64,000 nucleotides of DNA, taken from contig CASDTC010000002.1 in NCBI GenBank assembly GCA_949283535.1, positions 6,130 to 70,129 on the forward strand, given 5' to 3'. The DNA comes from an uncultured Pseudomonadota bacterium (lineage in GTDB: Bacteria; Pseudomonadota; Alphaproteobacteria; Rs-D84). Below, piece after piece: positions 16,452 through 60,100 of this stretch (the stretch's first letter is position 1; every line of letters begins with the position of its first letter). A model generated the notes under the pieces. It had not been told where the DNA came from and did no database searches. It saw only the letters and a program-made list of their open reading frames with translations. Made by a program: the position numbers and the translations under genes.

Positions 16452-16490
16452 TTAATTGCATTTATAAATGCCTGTGGTAAAATGCATGTT

Positions 16491-16645
16491 GCATTGGATG
16501 ATTACCAATGCGGGGTCTAGAAGCCTTATATAAGTAAAACTCTCCAACACGGGTTGGAGGGCTGTTAATATATCGAATATACAGCACTATTACTTGTAAT
16601 AGCTTCTAGCCTCCAACCGCCCATCATCACGGCGGTGTTTTTATT
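16491..16645 (+). ncRNA. candidate small RNA, family copy A
   Basis: An extended -10 (TGGTAAAAT, 16475-16483) lies 7 nt upstream of the conserved GCATTGG start. The 5' hairpin is GCATTGG/CCAATGC. The core is CTCCAAC-loop-GTTGGAGGG, then GAATATA..GAATA, a CTATTA/TAATAG hairpin and CCTCCAACCGCC. It ends in a CCGCC-loop-GGCGG hairpin followed by TGTTTTT. It is homologous to 44768-44960 and 58831-58955. Confidence 0.6.
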
Positions 16646-16657
16646 AATAATAAAACA

Positions 16658-16960
16658 ATGGGGGAAAATATTATGCCAGAAAGCAAACAACAAAAATTAA
16701 GACGCGCGATATTACGCGATGAATTTGATGCATTTATTACCGCCGGGCAACTGTTAAAGAACGCCCGCAGAATATTAGGCGTTGGTACAGAATTTATATC
16801 TAAAAAAATGGGAATTAATTCGCGATTGTGGGCGCGGTATGAAAACGATCGGGTAAAAATACCAAATACGATATTGCTGAAAATATTTGTATTCGGGCTG
16901 TCATTCTGGTGCAACATGCCAGATAATGCCATGCCCCAGCATATGGATAAAGATTTGTGA
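16658..16960 (+). CDS. XRE-family helix-turn-helix protein (about 95-100 aa)
   Basis: The HTH pattern LKNARRILGVGTEFISKKMGINSRLWARYEND is present. The true start may be the ATG at 16673, which has a GGGGGA SD. Confidence 0.55.
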   Translation: MGENIMPESKQQKLRRAILRDEFDAFITAGQLLKNARRILGVGTEFISKKMGINSRLWARYENDRVKIPNTILLKIFVFGLSFWCNMPDNAMPQHMDKDL

Positions 16961-17007: not shown

Positions 17008-17218
17008 TTATCATCGTGCGGGGCGCATCGCGACCGTGGCGATCCAGTTATAATAGAGTCGCGCATATGCGCGTGCATTATTTACTGGATTGCCGCGCTA
17101 CGCTCGCAATGACAAGTTAGTGATGTGGGGCATAATTGACTGGATTGCTTCGTTTCACTCGCAATGACAAGGGTATGTGTATTAACTGGATTGCCGCGCT
17201 GCGACGCGCATGACAGGT
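17008..17218. repeat. stacked palindromic hairpin repeats (GCGACCGTGGCGATCCAG and CTGGATTGC..CGCAATGACAAG types)
   Basis: Four consecutive hairpin units. The first 60 nt are nearly identical to 58975-59030 and related to 59920-59960. Confidence 0.85.
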
Positions 17219-23902: not shown

Positions 23903-23976
23903 TGGGGTGTCGTCTAATGGTAGGACAAGAGATTTTGGTTCTCTTTATCATGGTTCGAATCCGTGCGCCCCAACCA
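23903..23976 (+). tRNA. tRNA-Gln (UUG)
   Basis: Hand-folded cloverleaf. The acceptor stem is TGGGGTG/CGCCCCA. The anticodon stem is AGAGA/TCTCT with loop TTTTGGT. The T-arm is CATGG-TTCGAAT-CCGTG. CCA is encoded. Confidence 0.85.
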
Positions 23977-24235: not shown

Positions 24236-24310
24236 GGTCCCATCGTCTAGCGGTCAGGACATCGGATTCTCATTCCGGTAACACGGGTTCGATTCCCGTT
24301 GGGACTGCCA
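24236..24310 (+). tRNA. tRNA-Glu (CUC)
   Basis: Hand-folded. The acceptor stem is GGTCCCA/TGGGACT (G1-U72). The D-arm is GTCTAGCGGTCAGGAC. The anticodon stem is TCGGA/TCCGG with loop TTCTCAT. The T-arm is ACGGG-TTCGATT-CCCGT. GCCA is encoded. Confidence 0.8.
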
Positions 24311-29019: not shown

Positions 29020-29750
29020 AAACGCCCAATGGGGCGTTTTTTCAAAGTGCAAAGTTCAAAGCGAAAAGTTCAAATATTGTGTCGCTACGCGACAAGTTTT
29101 ATTTACTGGATTGCCACGCCATCTGCGATGGCTCGCAATGAATCCGAGTATGTGAAAACAAGCGATAGCGCAGTTTGAACAAATACGAGGATACGCACAG
29201 GGCGCATAAGCGCCCGAGCGACACAACAACAAAAAAGAGATTGCCACGCTACGCTCGCAATGACAAAGATGTTGCACTTTCTTGAACTCTCTGACCACCC
29301 CGCCGCTGCGCGGCACCCCTCCATAGAGGGGAACTGGGTATGGTGCTTTATTTTTTATTTTCGTGTTTCAATATGCTCTCATTTCCATATTTTTTCTTTG
29401 TCATCCCGTGGCTTGACCACGGGATCCAGGTTATGGGAGCTGTCGCGCAGCGACACATATCGCATTCACTGGATCGCCACGGTCACTGCGTTCCCTCGCG
29501 ATGACAAGGAACAAATAACGACCACACTCTCTTGTCATTGCGAGCGTAGCGAAGCAATCCAGTCAATTAACCTGTTGCAACGCGACACATATTTTTTATT
29601 CAATTCAGTATTTGCTGGCGCAAATAAGTTTGATTACCTGGATTCCGGGGTCAAGCCCCGGAATGACACAGAAAAGAATAGTGCGGACAAAAACTGCACT
29701 TTGCACTCGGCACTCTGCACTTTGAAAAAACGGGGCGATGCCCCGTGTTT
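29020..29750. repeat. about 730-bp intergenic region made almost entirely of stacked hairpin repeat modules
   Basis: It contains at least nine palindromic units. Examples are GTCGCTACGCGAC, CTGGATTGCCACG..CTCGCAATG, GTCATCCCGTGGCTTGACCACGGGATCC, CACTGGATCGCCACGGTC..CGCGATGAC, GTCATTGCGAGCGTAGCGAAGCAATCCAG and GGATTCCGGGGTCAAGCCCCGGAATGAC. CAAAGTGCA boxes and a terminator sit at each end. Confidence 0.9.
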
Positions 29751-44664: not shown

Positions 44665-44767
44665 ATCAGGTAAATTTTAGGATATTTATAGTGCATTTGC
44701 AAGTTTTGTATTAAAATTTCATTTTTATTTTCTGGCATTCTGTATCAAAGCATGTTATAATTTTTTT

Positions 44768-44960
44768 GCATGGGCGTTAATAAACCTGTGTGAGGCATCA
44801 AAACCCCTATTAAGCACGCACCGGGTTGTGTTAAAATCCTGCCAACCGTATCGGTTGGAGGGGGATGAATATACAGAATAAATCCCGCTATCGCTTAATA
44901 TAGTTTTGAACCTCCAACCGCCATAAATATTTTTGCTTTTGTGGGGTGGCGATTATTTTT
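44768..44960 (+). ncRNA. candidate small RNA, family copy B (divergent)
   Basis: An extended -10 (TGTTATAAT, 44753-44761) lies 6 nt upstream of GCATGGG. The core is CCAACCG-TAT-CGGTTGGAGGG, then GAATATACAGAATA, a CTAT..ATAG hairpin and GAACCTCCAACCGCC, as in copies A and C. It ends with CGCCA..TGGCG followed by ATTATTTTT. Confidence 0.5.
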
Positions 44961-45120
44961 AAACGGGGGATGCCTCTCTTATCTCCACAACAATGGGCAT
45001 CCCCATCAAATTCAAGACCCGGATTTTATTTTTTGACCCGGCAAAAAATATCGTGTGATATTTCTCTCTCCTGGGGAAAACACCGTATAATAAATTGGGA
45101 TTTTACCCATCCGGGTCACC

Positions 45121-48110: not shown

Positions 48111-49400
48111 ATGTTTTTATTCAAACGCACATTTTTTTATGCACTGCGGCACATTGTATTAATGGCAATGTGTTTTGTATTTATTCCGTCTGTTACATTT
48201 GGGGCGGACAAAAGTATTGTTGATGCATTAAACCTGGCGCCAATTATACCAACCGTTCTGGATGCATTAATGACCATTGCATCGGGCGGGTATGAATTCT
48301 TTGTCGGAAACGGCGATGGAATTATTTACATATTTGTCTGGGGATTTCTGGCGGTATCAATGGTGTTGTATTTATTAAAAATGTATTTCCCAAAACTGTG
48401 GGTGTCTTTTTTCGGCTTTTCGGGTGGCGGCGAAATGGCAGATGGCATCAGCGGGTTTACAATCGCAACAAATTTGTTAAAGCCCGGCATTCGTGCAATT
48501 ATTGCCGCCGTGGTATTATTACAATTAAAGCCCGTGTATTTAACAGAATGGCTGGTTAATCCATTTTTACAATTCGGGGCAATTTATACAGAAAGTTTGA
48601 CCAATACAATAAACGATGTCGCAGGCAGTGCGCCAAAAATTGAATGTCCAGAATCCGTTCTGGACCAGGGATGGATTTCAAAAGAAAGTTGTGAATTCTT
48701 GGTTCAACCCGTATCAGAAATATCACATGTAAATAACCAGGTTATCAAACGCGGATTTGATTTTATAAATACTGGATTGCGCGGATTAATAACATTGGTG
48801 CCACATGGTGGCGAAGATTTCTTGAACCTGGTCACAGGGGTATTATTAGTATTCACATTTGTTTCCAGCAATCTGTTTATGGCGTTGTTAATTATCCAGG
48901 CAATATTTAATTTTGGAATGGCACTGATTTTATATCCGTTCCAAGTATTGGCATATGTCGTAAAGCCCAGTGACAAATGGTTTGATATATGGCCAGCATT
49001 TGGCGGTATTACCAAGGCGTTGCAAAAACTGGTTATAACCATGATTGCATGCGCGTTTATTTTAATCGTTAATATTGCTGTTATAAAATCTTTATTCCAA
49101 TGGTCGTCATCTGTATTCGTTGTCGCCGCGGGTGGTGCCGCGTCATCAAATGTCCCCCAGGTTGCACACAGCGCAATGGGATTTGGGCAACATTCTATAT
49201 TATGGCTGTCAGCAATACTGACATTCTATTTAATGTTGCGCATATTTAAATTAACACGCGAACAACTGGACAGATATGTCGGCAGCGGTATGGATAAACT
49301 GTATAACCAGGTTATCAGTGATTCTAAAATTATGACAAAGAATGTTAAAAATATCGGCACAACTGTTGGTAAAGCATTGGGGTGGATTAAAAAGAAATGA
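48111..49400 (+). CDS. VirB6/TrbL-like polytopic membrane protein, paralog 2
   Basis: 429 aa with a signal/TM, then ..PTVLDALMTIASGGYEFF...VSMVLYLLKMYFPKLW and 6 or more TM helices. Its stop overlaps the next start (ATGA). Confidence 0.5.
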   Translation: MFLFKRTFFYALRHIVLMAMCFVFIPSVTFGADKSIVDALNLAPIIPTVLDALMTIASGGYEFFVGNGDGIIYIFVWGFLAVSMVLYLLKMYFPKLWVSFFGFSGGGEMADGISGFTIATNLLKPGIRAIIAAVVLLQLKPVYLTEWLVNPFLQFGAIYTESLTNTINDVAGSAPKIECPESVLDQGWISKESCEFLVQPVSEISHVNNQVIKRGFDFINTGLRGLITLVPHGGEDFLNLVTGVLLVFTFVSSNLFMALLIIQAIFNFGMALILYPFQVLAYVVKPSDKWFDIWPAFGGITKALQKLVITMIACAFILIVNIAVIKSLFQWSSSVFVVAAGGAASSNVPQVAHSAMGFGQHSILWLSAILTFYLMLRIFKLTREQLDRYVGSGMDKLYNQVISDSKIMTKNVKNIGTTVGKALGWIKKK

Positions 49401-58740: not shown

Positions 58741-58830
58741 ACTTATTATTAAATAATTATATCATAACAAGTAAATACTTAAAAGATGATTTTTATTGAT
58801 TTACCGCATCCATATGATAATATTTATTCT

Positions 58831-58955
58831 GCATTGGATGATTACCAGTGCGGGGTGTAAGAACCTCTCGAAGATTTACTCCAACCATGGTTGGAGGGTT
58901 GTGAATATATTGAATAAGCACACTATTATGTGATAGTTATGAACCTCCAACCGCC
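58831..58955 (+). ncRNA. candidate small RNA, family copy C
   Basis: An extended -10 (TGATAATAT, 58815-58823) lies 7 nt upstream of GCATTGG. The 5' hairpin is GCATTGG/CCAGTGC, where a U-G wobble replaces the U-A pair of copy A. The core is CTCCAACC-AT-GGTTGGAGGG, then GAATATATTGAATA, an ACTAT/ATAGT hairpin and GAACCTCCAACCGCC. No clear T-run terminator; it runs into a hairpin repeat. Confidence 0.55.
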
Positions 58956-58960
58956 ATTAA

Positions 58961-59150
58961 TCACGCAGGGAGCAACGCGACCGTGGCGATCCAGTTATAA
59001 TAGAGTCGCGCATACGCGCGCGCATAACCGACTGGATTGCCGCGCTGCGCCGCGCATGACAAGAGAAAGTGTATGTGGGGTGGGATGACACACGAAAGAA
59101 GTTCGCACCGTTGGCGCGGACAACAATTGTACTTTTCACTCTGAACTTTG
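58961..59150. repeat. hairpin repeat modules plus an inverted CAAAGT box module
   Basis: GCGACCGTGGCGATCCAGTTATAATAGAGTCGCGCATA is shared with 17030-17070. CTGGATTGCCGCGCTGCGCCGCGCATGACAAG follows. The region ends with the inverted CAAAGTTCAGAGTGAAAAGT box next to the rpmA terminator. Confidence 0.85.
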
Positions 59151-59914: not shown

Positions 59915-60100
59915 ATTGTCATCGCGCGGGGATCACAGCGACCGTGGCGATCCAGTGGGTAAAGATGTCGCACGCAGTCGCGTGCGTGCATAAATGCACT
60001 GGATTGCTTCGTTTCACTCGCAATGACAAGGCGAGTGTTTATTTTGCAAGGACAAGGGTGTGTGCATTAACTGGATTGCCGCGCTACGCATGCAATAATA
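59915..60100. repeat. hairpin repeat modules
   Basis: GTCATCGCGCGGGGATCACAGCGACCGTGGCGATCCAGTG, CACTGGATTGCTTCGTTTCACTCGCAATGACAAG (identical to 17138-17170) and AACTGGATTGCCGCGCTACGCATGCAAT. Confidence 0.85.

Follow-up and report, generated by a model that had tools for sequence, protein, structure and literature searches.

We describe here a structured RNA element that occurs in three copies, named A, B and C, within a 64,000-nt stretch of contig CASDTC010000002.1 (positions 6,130 to 70,129; assembly GCA_949283535.1, an uncultured alphaproteobacterium of the Rs-D84 lineage); this whole stretch is referred to as the window. Judging from sequence, we believe, with a probability of roughly 60%, that the three copies represent a multi-copy promoter-plus-leader cassette of gut Alphaproteobacteria that acts in cis as a transcription attenuator, and that its terminated product is most likely a small RNA (sRNA) of 150-220 nt. 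The element is a real and well-supported structured RNA, ordinary in kind, unannotated and unusually elaborate, and we regard it as a distant relative of sRNA-Xcc1 and of the Bartonella Brt RNAs rather than as a wholly new family.

The window contains exactly three copies, all on the + strand: A at 16475-16642, B at 44753-44959 and C at 58815-58965. These are the loci and the orientation put forward in a first reading of the bare sequence (the original prediction), and a covariance model of the 3' domain, R1, recovers exactly these three, with 90.1 bits for A (16551-16644), 81.7 bits for B (44852-44961) and 72.2 bits for C (58888-58998). The reverse strand at the same loci reaches only 20-23 bits, so that forward scores are about four times the reverse ones. 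A second model, R2, which describes the 5' part together with the core in the alternative fold (fold I, below), scores A at 134.6, C at 109.2 and B at 67.2 bits. The predicted fold of copy A has an energy of -59.7 kcal/mol, with z = -6.3 relative to shuffled sequence. Since G-U pairs outnumber A-C pairs by 113 to 4 in the anti-P1 helix of the family copies introduced next, the pairing takes place in + strand RNA, as had been proposed.

To place the copies in a family, one genome per species was scanned with the pattern GGAGG-N5-7-AATATANNGAATA-N20-40-CCTCC, which gave at least 120 loci; the family counts below, with denominators of 119-121, refer to the distinct copies among the matches listed, to which single metagenome-assembled genomes (MAGs) contribute as many as six each. 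With few exceptions, the listed loci belong to gut MAGs that are labelled Alphaproteobacteria, 'Rickettsiales' or Candidatus Enterousia, with ruminants, rabbit, horse, chicken, human and termite as hosts. Besides the three in the window, more than 140 copies are known from about 75 gut MAGs of Ca. Enterousia or the order Rs-D84 and from some phage contigs, the covariance models find additional copies that do not fit the scan pattern, and among the IMG/VR viral contigs with the pattern 8 of 10 are true model matches. Enterousia belongs to the uncultured order Rs-D84 and is fermentative, with genomes of 0.75-1.0 Mb (PMC12306168).

Two folds of the element can be drawn, and both are under selection. 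Fold I consists of the anti-P1 helix and two long-range helices, a/a' and b/b'; fold II is a junction of P1, P2 and P3. In copy A, the 5' domain begins with the P0 hairpin GCAUUGG-7 nt-CCAAUGC (16491-16511; minimum free energy (MFE) fold), followed by Pa (GGGG...CC, 16512-16525), which holds segment a, UCUAGAAGC (16516-16524), in its loop, and by segment b, AUAAGUAA (16530-16537), which in the family is often followed by an extra hairpin, Px. Next comes the anti-P1 5' strand CUCCAAC (16542-16548), which covaries by type and pairs with 16553-16559, within the middle strand GGUUGGAGG (16552-16560) used by both anti-P1 and P1. Downstream lie the P2 hairpin GCUGU/ACAGC (16561-16585) with its conserved A/U-rich loop UAAUAUAUCGAAUAU, the P3 hairpin CUAUUA/UAAUAG (16587-16602), which contains b', UUACUUGU (16590-16597), then a', GCUUCUAG (16602-16609), at the junction between P3 and the P1 3' strand, and finally that strand itself, CCUCCAACC (16610-16618). 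Segments a and b were assigned by the own-partner test described below, Pa also by compensation. Pa, the a/a' helix (16516-16524 with 16602-16609) and the b/b' helix (16530-16537 with 16590-16597) had all been overlooked earlier, and the stretch GAAUAUANNGAAUA, which had been read as unpaired, is actually the loop of the covarying hairpin P2. Across the family this loop, GAAUAUAUUGAAUAAG, is very strongly conserved, contains two GAAUA repeats and is unpaired in both folds.

The helices of fold II are maintained by compensatory change. In 108 copies, 95.8% of cells are paired compared to 79.2% after shuffling, 18 of 22 pairs have changed on both sides, and the covariation score is 0.436 against 0.149, with none of 500 shuffles as high; as a control, sliding the partners cuts pairing to 33-55%. 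That alignment was fitted to the model, and a MAFFT seed alignment gives the same picture. P1 is 99.8-100% paired and all four of its variable pairs are compensatory; they are canonical in 117 of 121 copies, in about ten sequence types. Likewise, five of five pairs are compensatory in both P2 and P3.

Fold I is supported in the same way. A plain MAFFT alignment of 15 short leaders is 86.6% paired against 75.5% after shuffling, with 18 of 31 pairs compensatory, and in 80 copies the figures are 91.9% and 71.2%, with all eight a/a' pairs compensatory; in the family alignments of both folds the observed pairing was reached in 0 of 500 shuffles. P0 is found in 115 of 120 copies with entirely different sequences, and each of its seven pairs is compensatory (80 copies), while the Pa stem covaries such that GAGG occurs with CCUC in 15 of 16 cases. 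A nested GGGG/CUCC pairing in the MFE fold was rejected since it is uncompensated when the G run changes, the local Pa stem being compensated instead. Because a and b differ completely between copies, we also used an alignment-free test in which each a' or b' was allowed to form duplexes with the upstream region of its own copy and, for comparison, of all other copies. For a/a', the own partner gives -8.1 kcal against -5.1 kcal for others and lies in the top 5% for 87 of 121 copies; for b/b', the values are -8.8 against -4.4 kcal, and 80 of 121. The same duplex test on downstream sequence returned median ranks only, a clean negative control.

Given that anti-P1 and P1 use the same middle strand, the two folds are mutually exclusive, and as the b/b' helix overlaps the P3 stem, b/b' and P3 exclude each other too. 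The three-strand switch CUCCAACC / GGUUGGAGG / CCUCCAACC had been recognised in the original prediction, and all three strands do covary by type: the anti-P1 partner follows the P1 type, GGUU with AAxx and GUCA with UGxx, with no exception. In Boltzmann ensembles of full leaders, anti-P1 has a probability of about 0.86 and P1 of about 0.03 in 116 of 121 copies; for copy A, the predicted occupancy of anti-P1 is 0.96. P1 is thus almost perfectly conserved and yet not the predicted ground state, which in these models is the signature of a regulated alternative structure.

The element carries its own promoter and terminator sequences. The extended -10 box of copy A, TGGTAAAAT (16475-16483, + strand), places the predicted start at G 16491, and in A, B and C alike the box lies 6-7 nt before the conserved G, exactly as first described. 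A -10 hexamer (at least 5/6) is present in 111 of 119 copies, 27-29 nt before Pa in 71 of them, and a -35 box (at least 4/6) accompanies the -10 in 69; a simple promoter scanner called a full promoter only for copy B and missed copy A, which has a poor -35. At the other end, a hairpin followed by a run of at least four T residues is found in 114 of 121 copies, and the top three stem pairs of the terminator are compensatory. In copy A it reads ACCGCC-CAUCAUCAC-GGCGGU-GUUUUU (16616-16642; MFE fold). The P1 3' strand was correctly seen to extend into its 5' arm, the ACC being common to both, and across the family this overlap of 2-3 nt is kept in both AACC and UGACC types. Three pairs of helices are mutually exclusive: anti-P1 and P1, b/b' and P3, and P1 and the terminator base. 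A simple terminator scanner missed the copy A terminator because its loop is 9 nt long. The terminator first described for copy A stands, and copy C has none.

The linkage to genes is equally consistent. A start codon with a Shine-Dalgarno (SD) sequence follows about 40-110 nt after CCUCC, 15-35 nt past the terminator, and a co-oriented open reading frame (ORF) with an SD lies behind 108 of 121 copies, from which we conclude that the element is mainly a leader and not, as had been supposed, an sRNA gene in its own right. Behind copy A, an SD, GGGGG (16660-16664), precedes a 95-aa XRE-type helix-turn-helix (HTH) gene on the + strand (ATG at 16673, ending at 16960, stop included); its product matches HTH_19 and is identical on five public contigs. 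Throughout the family, 68 downstream ORFs (about 60%) have signal-peptide-like N-termini and mostly lack a Pfam family, the secreted products being cysteine-rich, with Flg_new, Ephrin_rec_like, PKD or DUF285 in a few. A further 32 are small, non-secreted and mostly of the XRE HTH type (HTH_3/19/31); a small XRE HTH gene thus lies behind about a quarter of the copies, and in the window behind A only. ATP-binding cassette (ABC) exporters account for two of the downstream proteins scanned. No ORF follows the leader in 13 of 121 copies, copy B included. A leader peptide with ribosome-mediated attenuation was rejected, as no conserved start codon or ORF could be read within the leader.

Based on these sequence features, we propose the following model for cis-acting attenuation. 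A sigma-70 promoter would start transcription at P0, and the leader of 150-225 nt would end in the intrinsic terminator. In fold I, the predicted default, GGUUGGAGG would pair with the upstream CUCCAAC, and the copy-specific a/a' and b/b' helices would form; nothing would hinder the terminator, transcription would stop, and a short sRNA-like transcript would build up. In fold II, GGUUGGAGG would instead pair with the downstream CCUCCAACC, closing the P1-P2-P3 three-way junction, and P1 would claim ACC (or CC), the 2-3 nt that make up the base of the terminator stem beside the U tract. The bottom pairs of the stem are critical for intrinsic termination, and fold II should therefore permit read-through: termination would be weakened and RNA polymerase would read into the gene. 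Fold II would thus be the ON state, with a ligand, protein or RNA shifting the balance between the folds, and the P2 loop is the obvious candidate contact for such a factor. Control of the XRE gene by read-through from copy A, as originally suggested, appears to be the best reading of that locus.

Several observations weigh against this model. P1 and the terminator share no more than 2-3 nt and could partly coexist, so that the direction of the switch is a proposal. The attenuator hairpin of Brt stands apart from P1, and coupling of this kind is therefore no general rule. The 13 copies without a downstream gene imply that some copies act, if at all, as stand-alone RNAs, and the downstream genes have no shared metabolic theme that points to a ligand. 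Finally, two of the structural alignments, A8 and A10, had been fitted to the very structures that they served to test.

A special case of the attenuator, which we consider unlikely though worth taking seriously, is a ligand-sensing riboswitch in which the junction and P2 loop are the aptamer and the ligand locks fold II, turning the regulon ON. The bistable architecture with both folds under selection and the very strong conservation of the P2 loop would both suit an aptamer. So would the many copies per small genome before surface or secreted genes and regulators, a pattern known from the cyclic di-GMP and cyclic GMP-AMP (cGAMP) riboswitches. A Brt1 reporter, moreover, responded to heme level (PMC8070961). 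However, no ligand can be deduced from the downstream genes, which form no coherent one-metabolite pathway, and relatives of the element in phages, plasmids and integron cassettes precede antirepressor, symE and XRE genes, contexts that speak for RNA-RNA or protein control more than for the sensing of a metabolite; the phage and plasmid relatives use a' and b' as antisense seeds against the ribosome-binding site (RBS). In a broader form, the P1-P2-P3 junction, which the family has in common with sRNA-Xcc1 and, in layout, with Brt, might be the sensor of a common signal, be it a ligand or a host factor, that was multiplied in the ultra-small Rs-D84 genomes into a 'ribo-regulon' gating dozens of secreted and surface genes and XRE regulators by termination, with a/a' and b/b' insulating the copies from one another. 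We hold this to be speculative and doubtful as it stands. If true, this sensor domain would turn out to be the functional core that has long been sought in sRNA-Xcc1 and Brt, and it would also be analogous to c4 in phage antirepressor control.

Might the element instead be the gene of a trans-acting sRNA, whose terminated RNA of 150-220 nt pairs with distant mRNAs, the link to the adjacent gene being secondary? There is precedent, as sRNA-Xcc1 is an 88-nt RNA detected by Northern blot and rapid amplification of cDNA ends (PMC2996969) and high levels of Brt RNA go along with weak transcription of the trp genes (PMC5387305), and copy B and 12 other copies have no downstream gene to control. Against this, 108 of 121 copies lie before a co-oriented gene at a fixed short distance, and the variable a' and b' match partners in their own leader rather than conserved targets; when targets of the copy A seeds were searched within the window, the only paired a..b site was its own 5' domain. 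Furthermore, GGAGG/CCUCC, once thought to resemble SD and anti-SD sequences that could act in trans, changes with compensation (GGAGU/ACUCC, GGUCGGGGUG/CACCCCGACC) in copies that were not selected by pattern, and the equivalent Brt helix is CCGGGAG/CUCCCGG. GGAGG/CCUCC is a helix and not a conserved anti-SD, which disposes of an anti-SD sponge, and we regard a primarily trans-acting RNA as quite improbable.

Rather different are the relatives on phages and plasmids, which raise the question of c4-like antisense control, whereby the processed junction RNA would block translation by pairing through a' and b' with two sites at the RBS of the gene behind it, with a and b further upstream as decoys. 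The phage-borne members from IMG/VR are L128 577-733, L129 4248-4404, L130 5387-5544 and L134 5430-5720, and each of these four lies ahead of a Bro-N or Rha antirepressor-type gene. In L128, L129, L130 and the sRNA-Xcc1-like elements on three Bartonella plasmids (L136-L138), all of which lack the 5' domain, and also in L134, a' and the b' of the P3 loop match two sites that flank or overlap the SD, with compensatory changes between copies: for b'-b2, the own target gives -8.8 kcal against -5.0 kcal for other copies, the sites differing from one element to another but matching within each. In the plasmid element, a' and the P3 loop are matched by UUCAAAAC and CCUAAAGG, complementary sites around the SD of the gene that follows, which encodes a hypothetical protein with a YdcK beta-solenoid repeat at 26.8 bits, below the Pfam cut-off of 30. 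L134 has both upstream a/b and downstream a2/b2, like the a1b1-c4-a2b2 arrangement of phage P1. In the chromosomal copies, those of the window included, a' and b' match neither the RBS nor the downstream 140 nt, own targets rank at the median among those from other copies, no signal of a2/b2 sites emerged in the whole set or in either gene class, and copies A, B and C gave no match to Rfam C4 or isrK in E-value mode. For the window copies, c4-like control is largely refuted and we consider it most improbable; it would seem that the seeds were re-used to build the chromosomal switch. Lastly, a DNA-level repeat, that is, a miniature inverted-repeat transposable element (MITE), a repetitive extragenic palindromic (REP) sequence or an attC-like recombination site, might account for the multiple copies, for the same HTH gene and leader in a second genomic context and for sRNA-Xcc1 in integron cassettes, but we can practically discard it: the strand-specific covariation (G-U far above A-C, forward scores of 72-90 bits against 20-23 in reverse), the fixed orientation upstream of genes together with promoter, terminator and SD, the lack of terminal inverted repeats or target-site duplications, and helices kept by compensatory changes though their sequences differ completely all refute it.

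The other two copies of the window depart from copy A in instructive ways. Copy B, identified by its fold, R1 and R2 scores and the promoter scan, comprises a -10 box TGTTATAAT (44753-44761), P0 (44768-44791), Pa with segment a (44792-44807), segment b (44808-44815), the anti-P1 strand (44842-44848), the middle strand (44853-44861), P2 (44862-44886), P3 with b' (44888-44903), a' (44903-44909) and the P1 3' strand (44911-44919), and finishes with a weak terminator-like hairpin and U run that ends at 44959. Its predicted anti-P1 probability is 0.70, and no + strand gene follows it. Directly 3' of it, at 44961-45010, lies a hairpin GGGGGAUGCC...GGGCAUCCCC, and a possible 22-codon ORF without SD spacing begins at 44970; these may be the remnant of a lost downstream gene. 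Copy C, identified by its fold and by R1 and R2, is truncated: it retains the -10 box TGATAATAT (58815-58823), P0 (58831-58851), the middle strand (58889-58897) and the P1 3' strand (58944-58952), but a/a' and b/b' are broken, and the P1 fold is predicted at 0.93. Homology ends after 58965, and from about 58975 a REP-like repeat replaces the 3' arm of the terminator and the gene.

This repeat belongs to a second family in the window, with the core GCRATCCAGT, of which there are 14 exact sites against 0.14 expected. Its members lie at 17018-17210, 29105-29563, 58975-59062 and 59947-60079, and also at 2123-2132 and 48771-48780, and the sites form inverted repeats GACCGTGGCGATCCAGTTATAATAGAGTCGCGCATA...ACTGGATTGCCGCGCT...CGCAATGACAAG. 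One copy follows the HTH gene of copy A, another stands in place of the terminator and gene of copy C, and a related GGCAATCCAGTAAATATTTGCAAAT is found upstream of some HTH-type leaders in other genomes (L011, L038, L106). The repeat could be a REP-like element or an operator.

The HTH gene behind copy A recurs elsewhere. At L001 2818-3288 (also L002, L003 and L005), a 95-aa HTH protein identical to the product of window 16673-16960 is encoded in the context OmpA ... HTH ... SecA. The region from terminator to start codon is near-identical to that of copy A, and the leader has different a and b segments and resembles copy C of the window. This suggests that leader-gene cassettes have been recombined or duplicated. 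Another variant is seen at L091 2776-3067 (- strand), where two 3' domains stand in tandem about 175 nt apart, the first without a recognisable 5' domain; it recalls the tandem sRNA-Xcc1 arrays of Xylella (PMC12189769).

Comparison with known systems begins with Rfam. At gathering thresholds, Rfam finds in the window only two tRNA genes, both on the + strand (23903-23973, 57.7 bits; 24236-24307, 61.6 bits), and none of the copies in 18 loci that hold more than 20 copies. In E-value mode, sRNA-Xcc1 (RF02221) matches copy A with 35.5 bits (E 9e-5) and copy B with 38.0 bits (E 2e-5), against a gathering score of 53, and gives no match to copy C. The alignments of A and B span model positions 1-87, with P1 enclosing two hairpins, and P1, P2 and P3 all covary. 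Other copies, including a G-rich subtype, reach 36.6-43.8 bits, below the threshold for the curated family, and it is for this reason that Rfam annotation misses every copy. The claim that the element belongs to no known family nevertheless has to be given up, given that A and B are full-length sub-threshold matches to RF02221 and that the architecture equals that of Bartonella Brt. The G-rich subtype occurs in the same Enterousia genomes (L118 1765-1874, L036 3981-4096, L016 1932-2045, L023 1625-1730, L058 651-752); its P1 is GGUCGGGG.../...CCCCGACC (GGUCGGGGUG/CACCCCGACC) and its P2 has an inner GNRA-like hairpin, it keeps the 5' domain and the terminator, and signal-peptide genes lie downstream. 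It resembles the Rfam consensus more closely (38-44 bits, 5' domain kept).

Like the family described here, sRNA-Xcc1 has a P1 that closes two hairpins, a P2 with an A/U-rich loop and AAUA repeats, and a UUUGA-like junction before the P1 3' strand. It also lies upstream of small regulator or toxin genes, namely an ORF6N gene in APSE phages and symE in the integron cassettes of Xanthomonas. In contrast to our family, sRNA-Xcc1 starts at P1 and is 88 nt long (PMC2996969), whereas here the distance from the -10 box to P1 is about 75 nt in copy A and 60-110 nt across the family. Our family also has an extra 5' domain of 60-110 nt, able to unfold the junction, and an intrinsic terminator. An sRNA-Xcc1-like element is also found on the Bartonella plasmids pBGR3, pTLV-1 and pTT0105 (L137 1906-2045, L136 1925-2065, L138 1915-2055), with 47-49.5 bits, just under the gathering score, and a -10 box that abuts P1. 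With filters off, R1 ranked these three plasmid elements first, albeit weakly (11.5-16.2 bits, E 0.014-0.19). Together with the RF02221 matches, this leads us to regard the 3' junction as a distant relative of sRNA-Xcc1.

Two further systems share parts of the design. The adenine riboswitch of Vibrio vulnificus add is a three-state switch with a 5' competing strand; as in our family, an upstream competitor can capture the P1 5' strand of a three-way junction whose P1 3' strand is also part of the expression platform. Our family differs in its non-metabolic gene set and in two further copy-specific long-range helices. The c4 antisense RNA of the immI region of phages P1 and P7, reportedly described by Citron and Schuster in 1990, similarly carries two short copy-specific seeds, comparable to a' and b', within a structured RNA that is encoded ahead of a regulatory gene; segments a and b, which lie upstream in our family, are analogous to a1/b1 of c4, and the phage and plasmid relatives have a2/b2 at the RBS of an antirepressor-type gene. 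In our family, unlike c4, control would apparently be exerted via the terminator and not via translation.

The closest parallel in layout is Brt. Brt1-9 are multi-copy RNAs of about 200 nt with their own promoter, located upstream of small XRE HTH (Trp) genes (PMC5387305; PMC8070961). The 3' stem-loop of Brt1 attenuates transcription of the downstream XRE gene trp1, and its deletion de-represses trp1 (PMC8070961; PMC5387305). The Brts have been described as Bartonella-specific, always before HTH genes and 74-100% identical to one another (PMC5387305; PMC8070961). Published oligos led us to Brt copies on the same three Bartonella plasmids (L136-L138), directly upstream of an HTH gene; the sRNA-Xcc1-like element lies about 500 nt from this brt-trp pair on the other strand. 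As regards the oligos (PMC5387305 Table S6), comparison with L136-L138 showed 'BrtProbe' and 'Brt1asF' to run in the sense orientation of the Brt RNA, close to its 3' end, and 'BrtF' and 'Brt1asR' to match its 5' end, such that the labels can mislead sequence comparisons. A 13-nt identity, ACAGAATAAATCC, between the P2 loop of copy B and 'asBrtProbe' was dismissed as coincidence, the match being to the antisense strand.

The plasmid Brt copies share the order of parts found here: P0, Pa with loop a, b, Px, the three-strand switch, P3 with b', and a'. Their anti-P1, middle and P1 3' strands are UCCCGGA, UCCGGGAG and CUCCCGGA, their MFE fold is fold I, and b/b' is compensatory across the three copies (AUUCUAG/CUAGAAU, AUUAUAG/CUAUAAU, GUUCGAG/CUCGAAC), as is a/a'. 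Both elements have a 3' stem-loop, which in our case is followed by a U tract and is predicted from sequence to attenuate transcription, and copy A, though not B or C, stands like Brt co-oriented and immediately before an XRE HTH gene. On the other hand, the P1 core, P2 domain and terminator all differ from those of Brt, the hosts are Ca. Enterousia and Rs-D84 rather than Bartonella, and most copies precede genes for secreted proteins. BLAST of the element against plasmids carrying Brt, other plasmids and phages gave no match, RF02221, R1 and R2 do not score Brt, and exact Brt patterns were not found in viral and metagenome contigs. At the protein level, Bartonella Trp and the HTH proteins here share generic XRE similarity, at best 39-51% identity over 50-60 aa. 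By analogy, then, the element appears to be built and to work like Brt, though homology is unproven.

That a multi-copy structured RNA in a gut lineage with genomes below 1 Mb escapes the curated thresholds of Rfam is of wider relevance. For Enterousia and Rs-D84, it points to one shared control point for most secreted proteins, the proteins that probably tie these reduced bacteria to the hosts or partner cells they depend on. The evidence also joins three elements that were described separately and, as to function, in outline only, namely sRNA-Xcc1, a 'virulence sRNA' of Xanthomonas, the Brt RNAs and the leaders of phage antirepressor genes, and it supplies a testable mechanism: a three-strand switch with two seed helices, which pair with the RBS in the phage and plasmid forms and with an upstream decoy in the chromosomal form.

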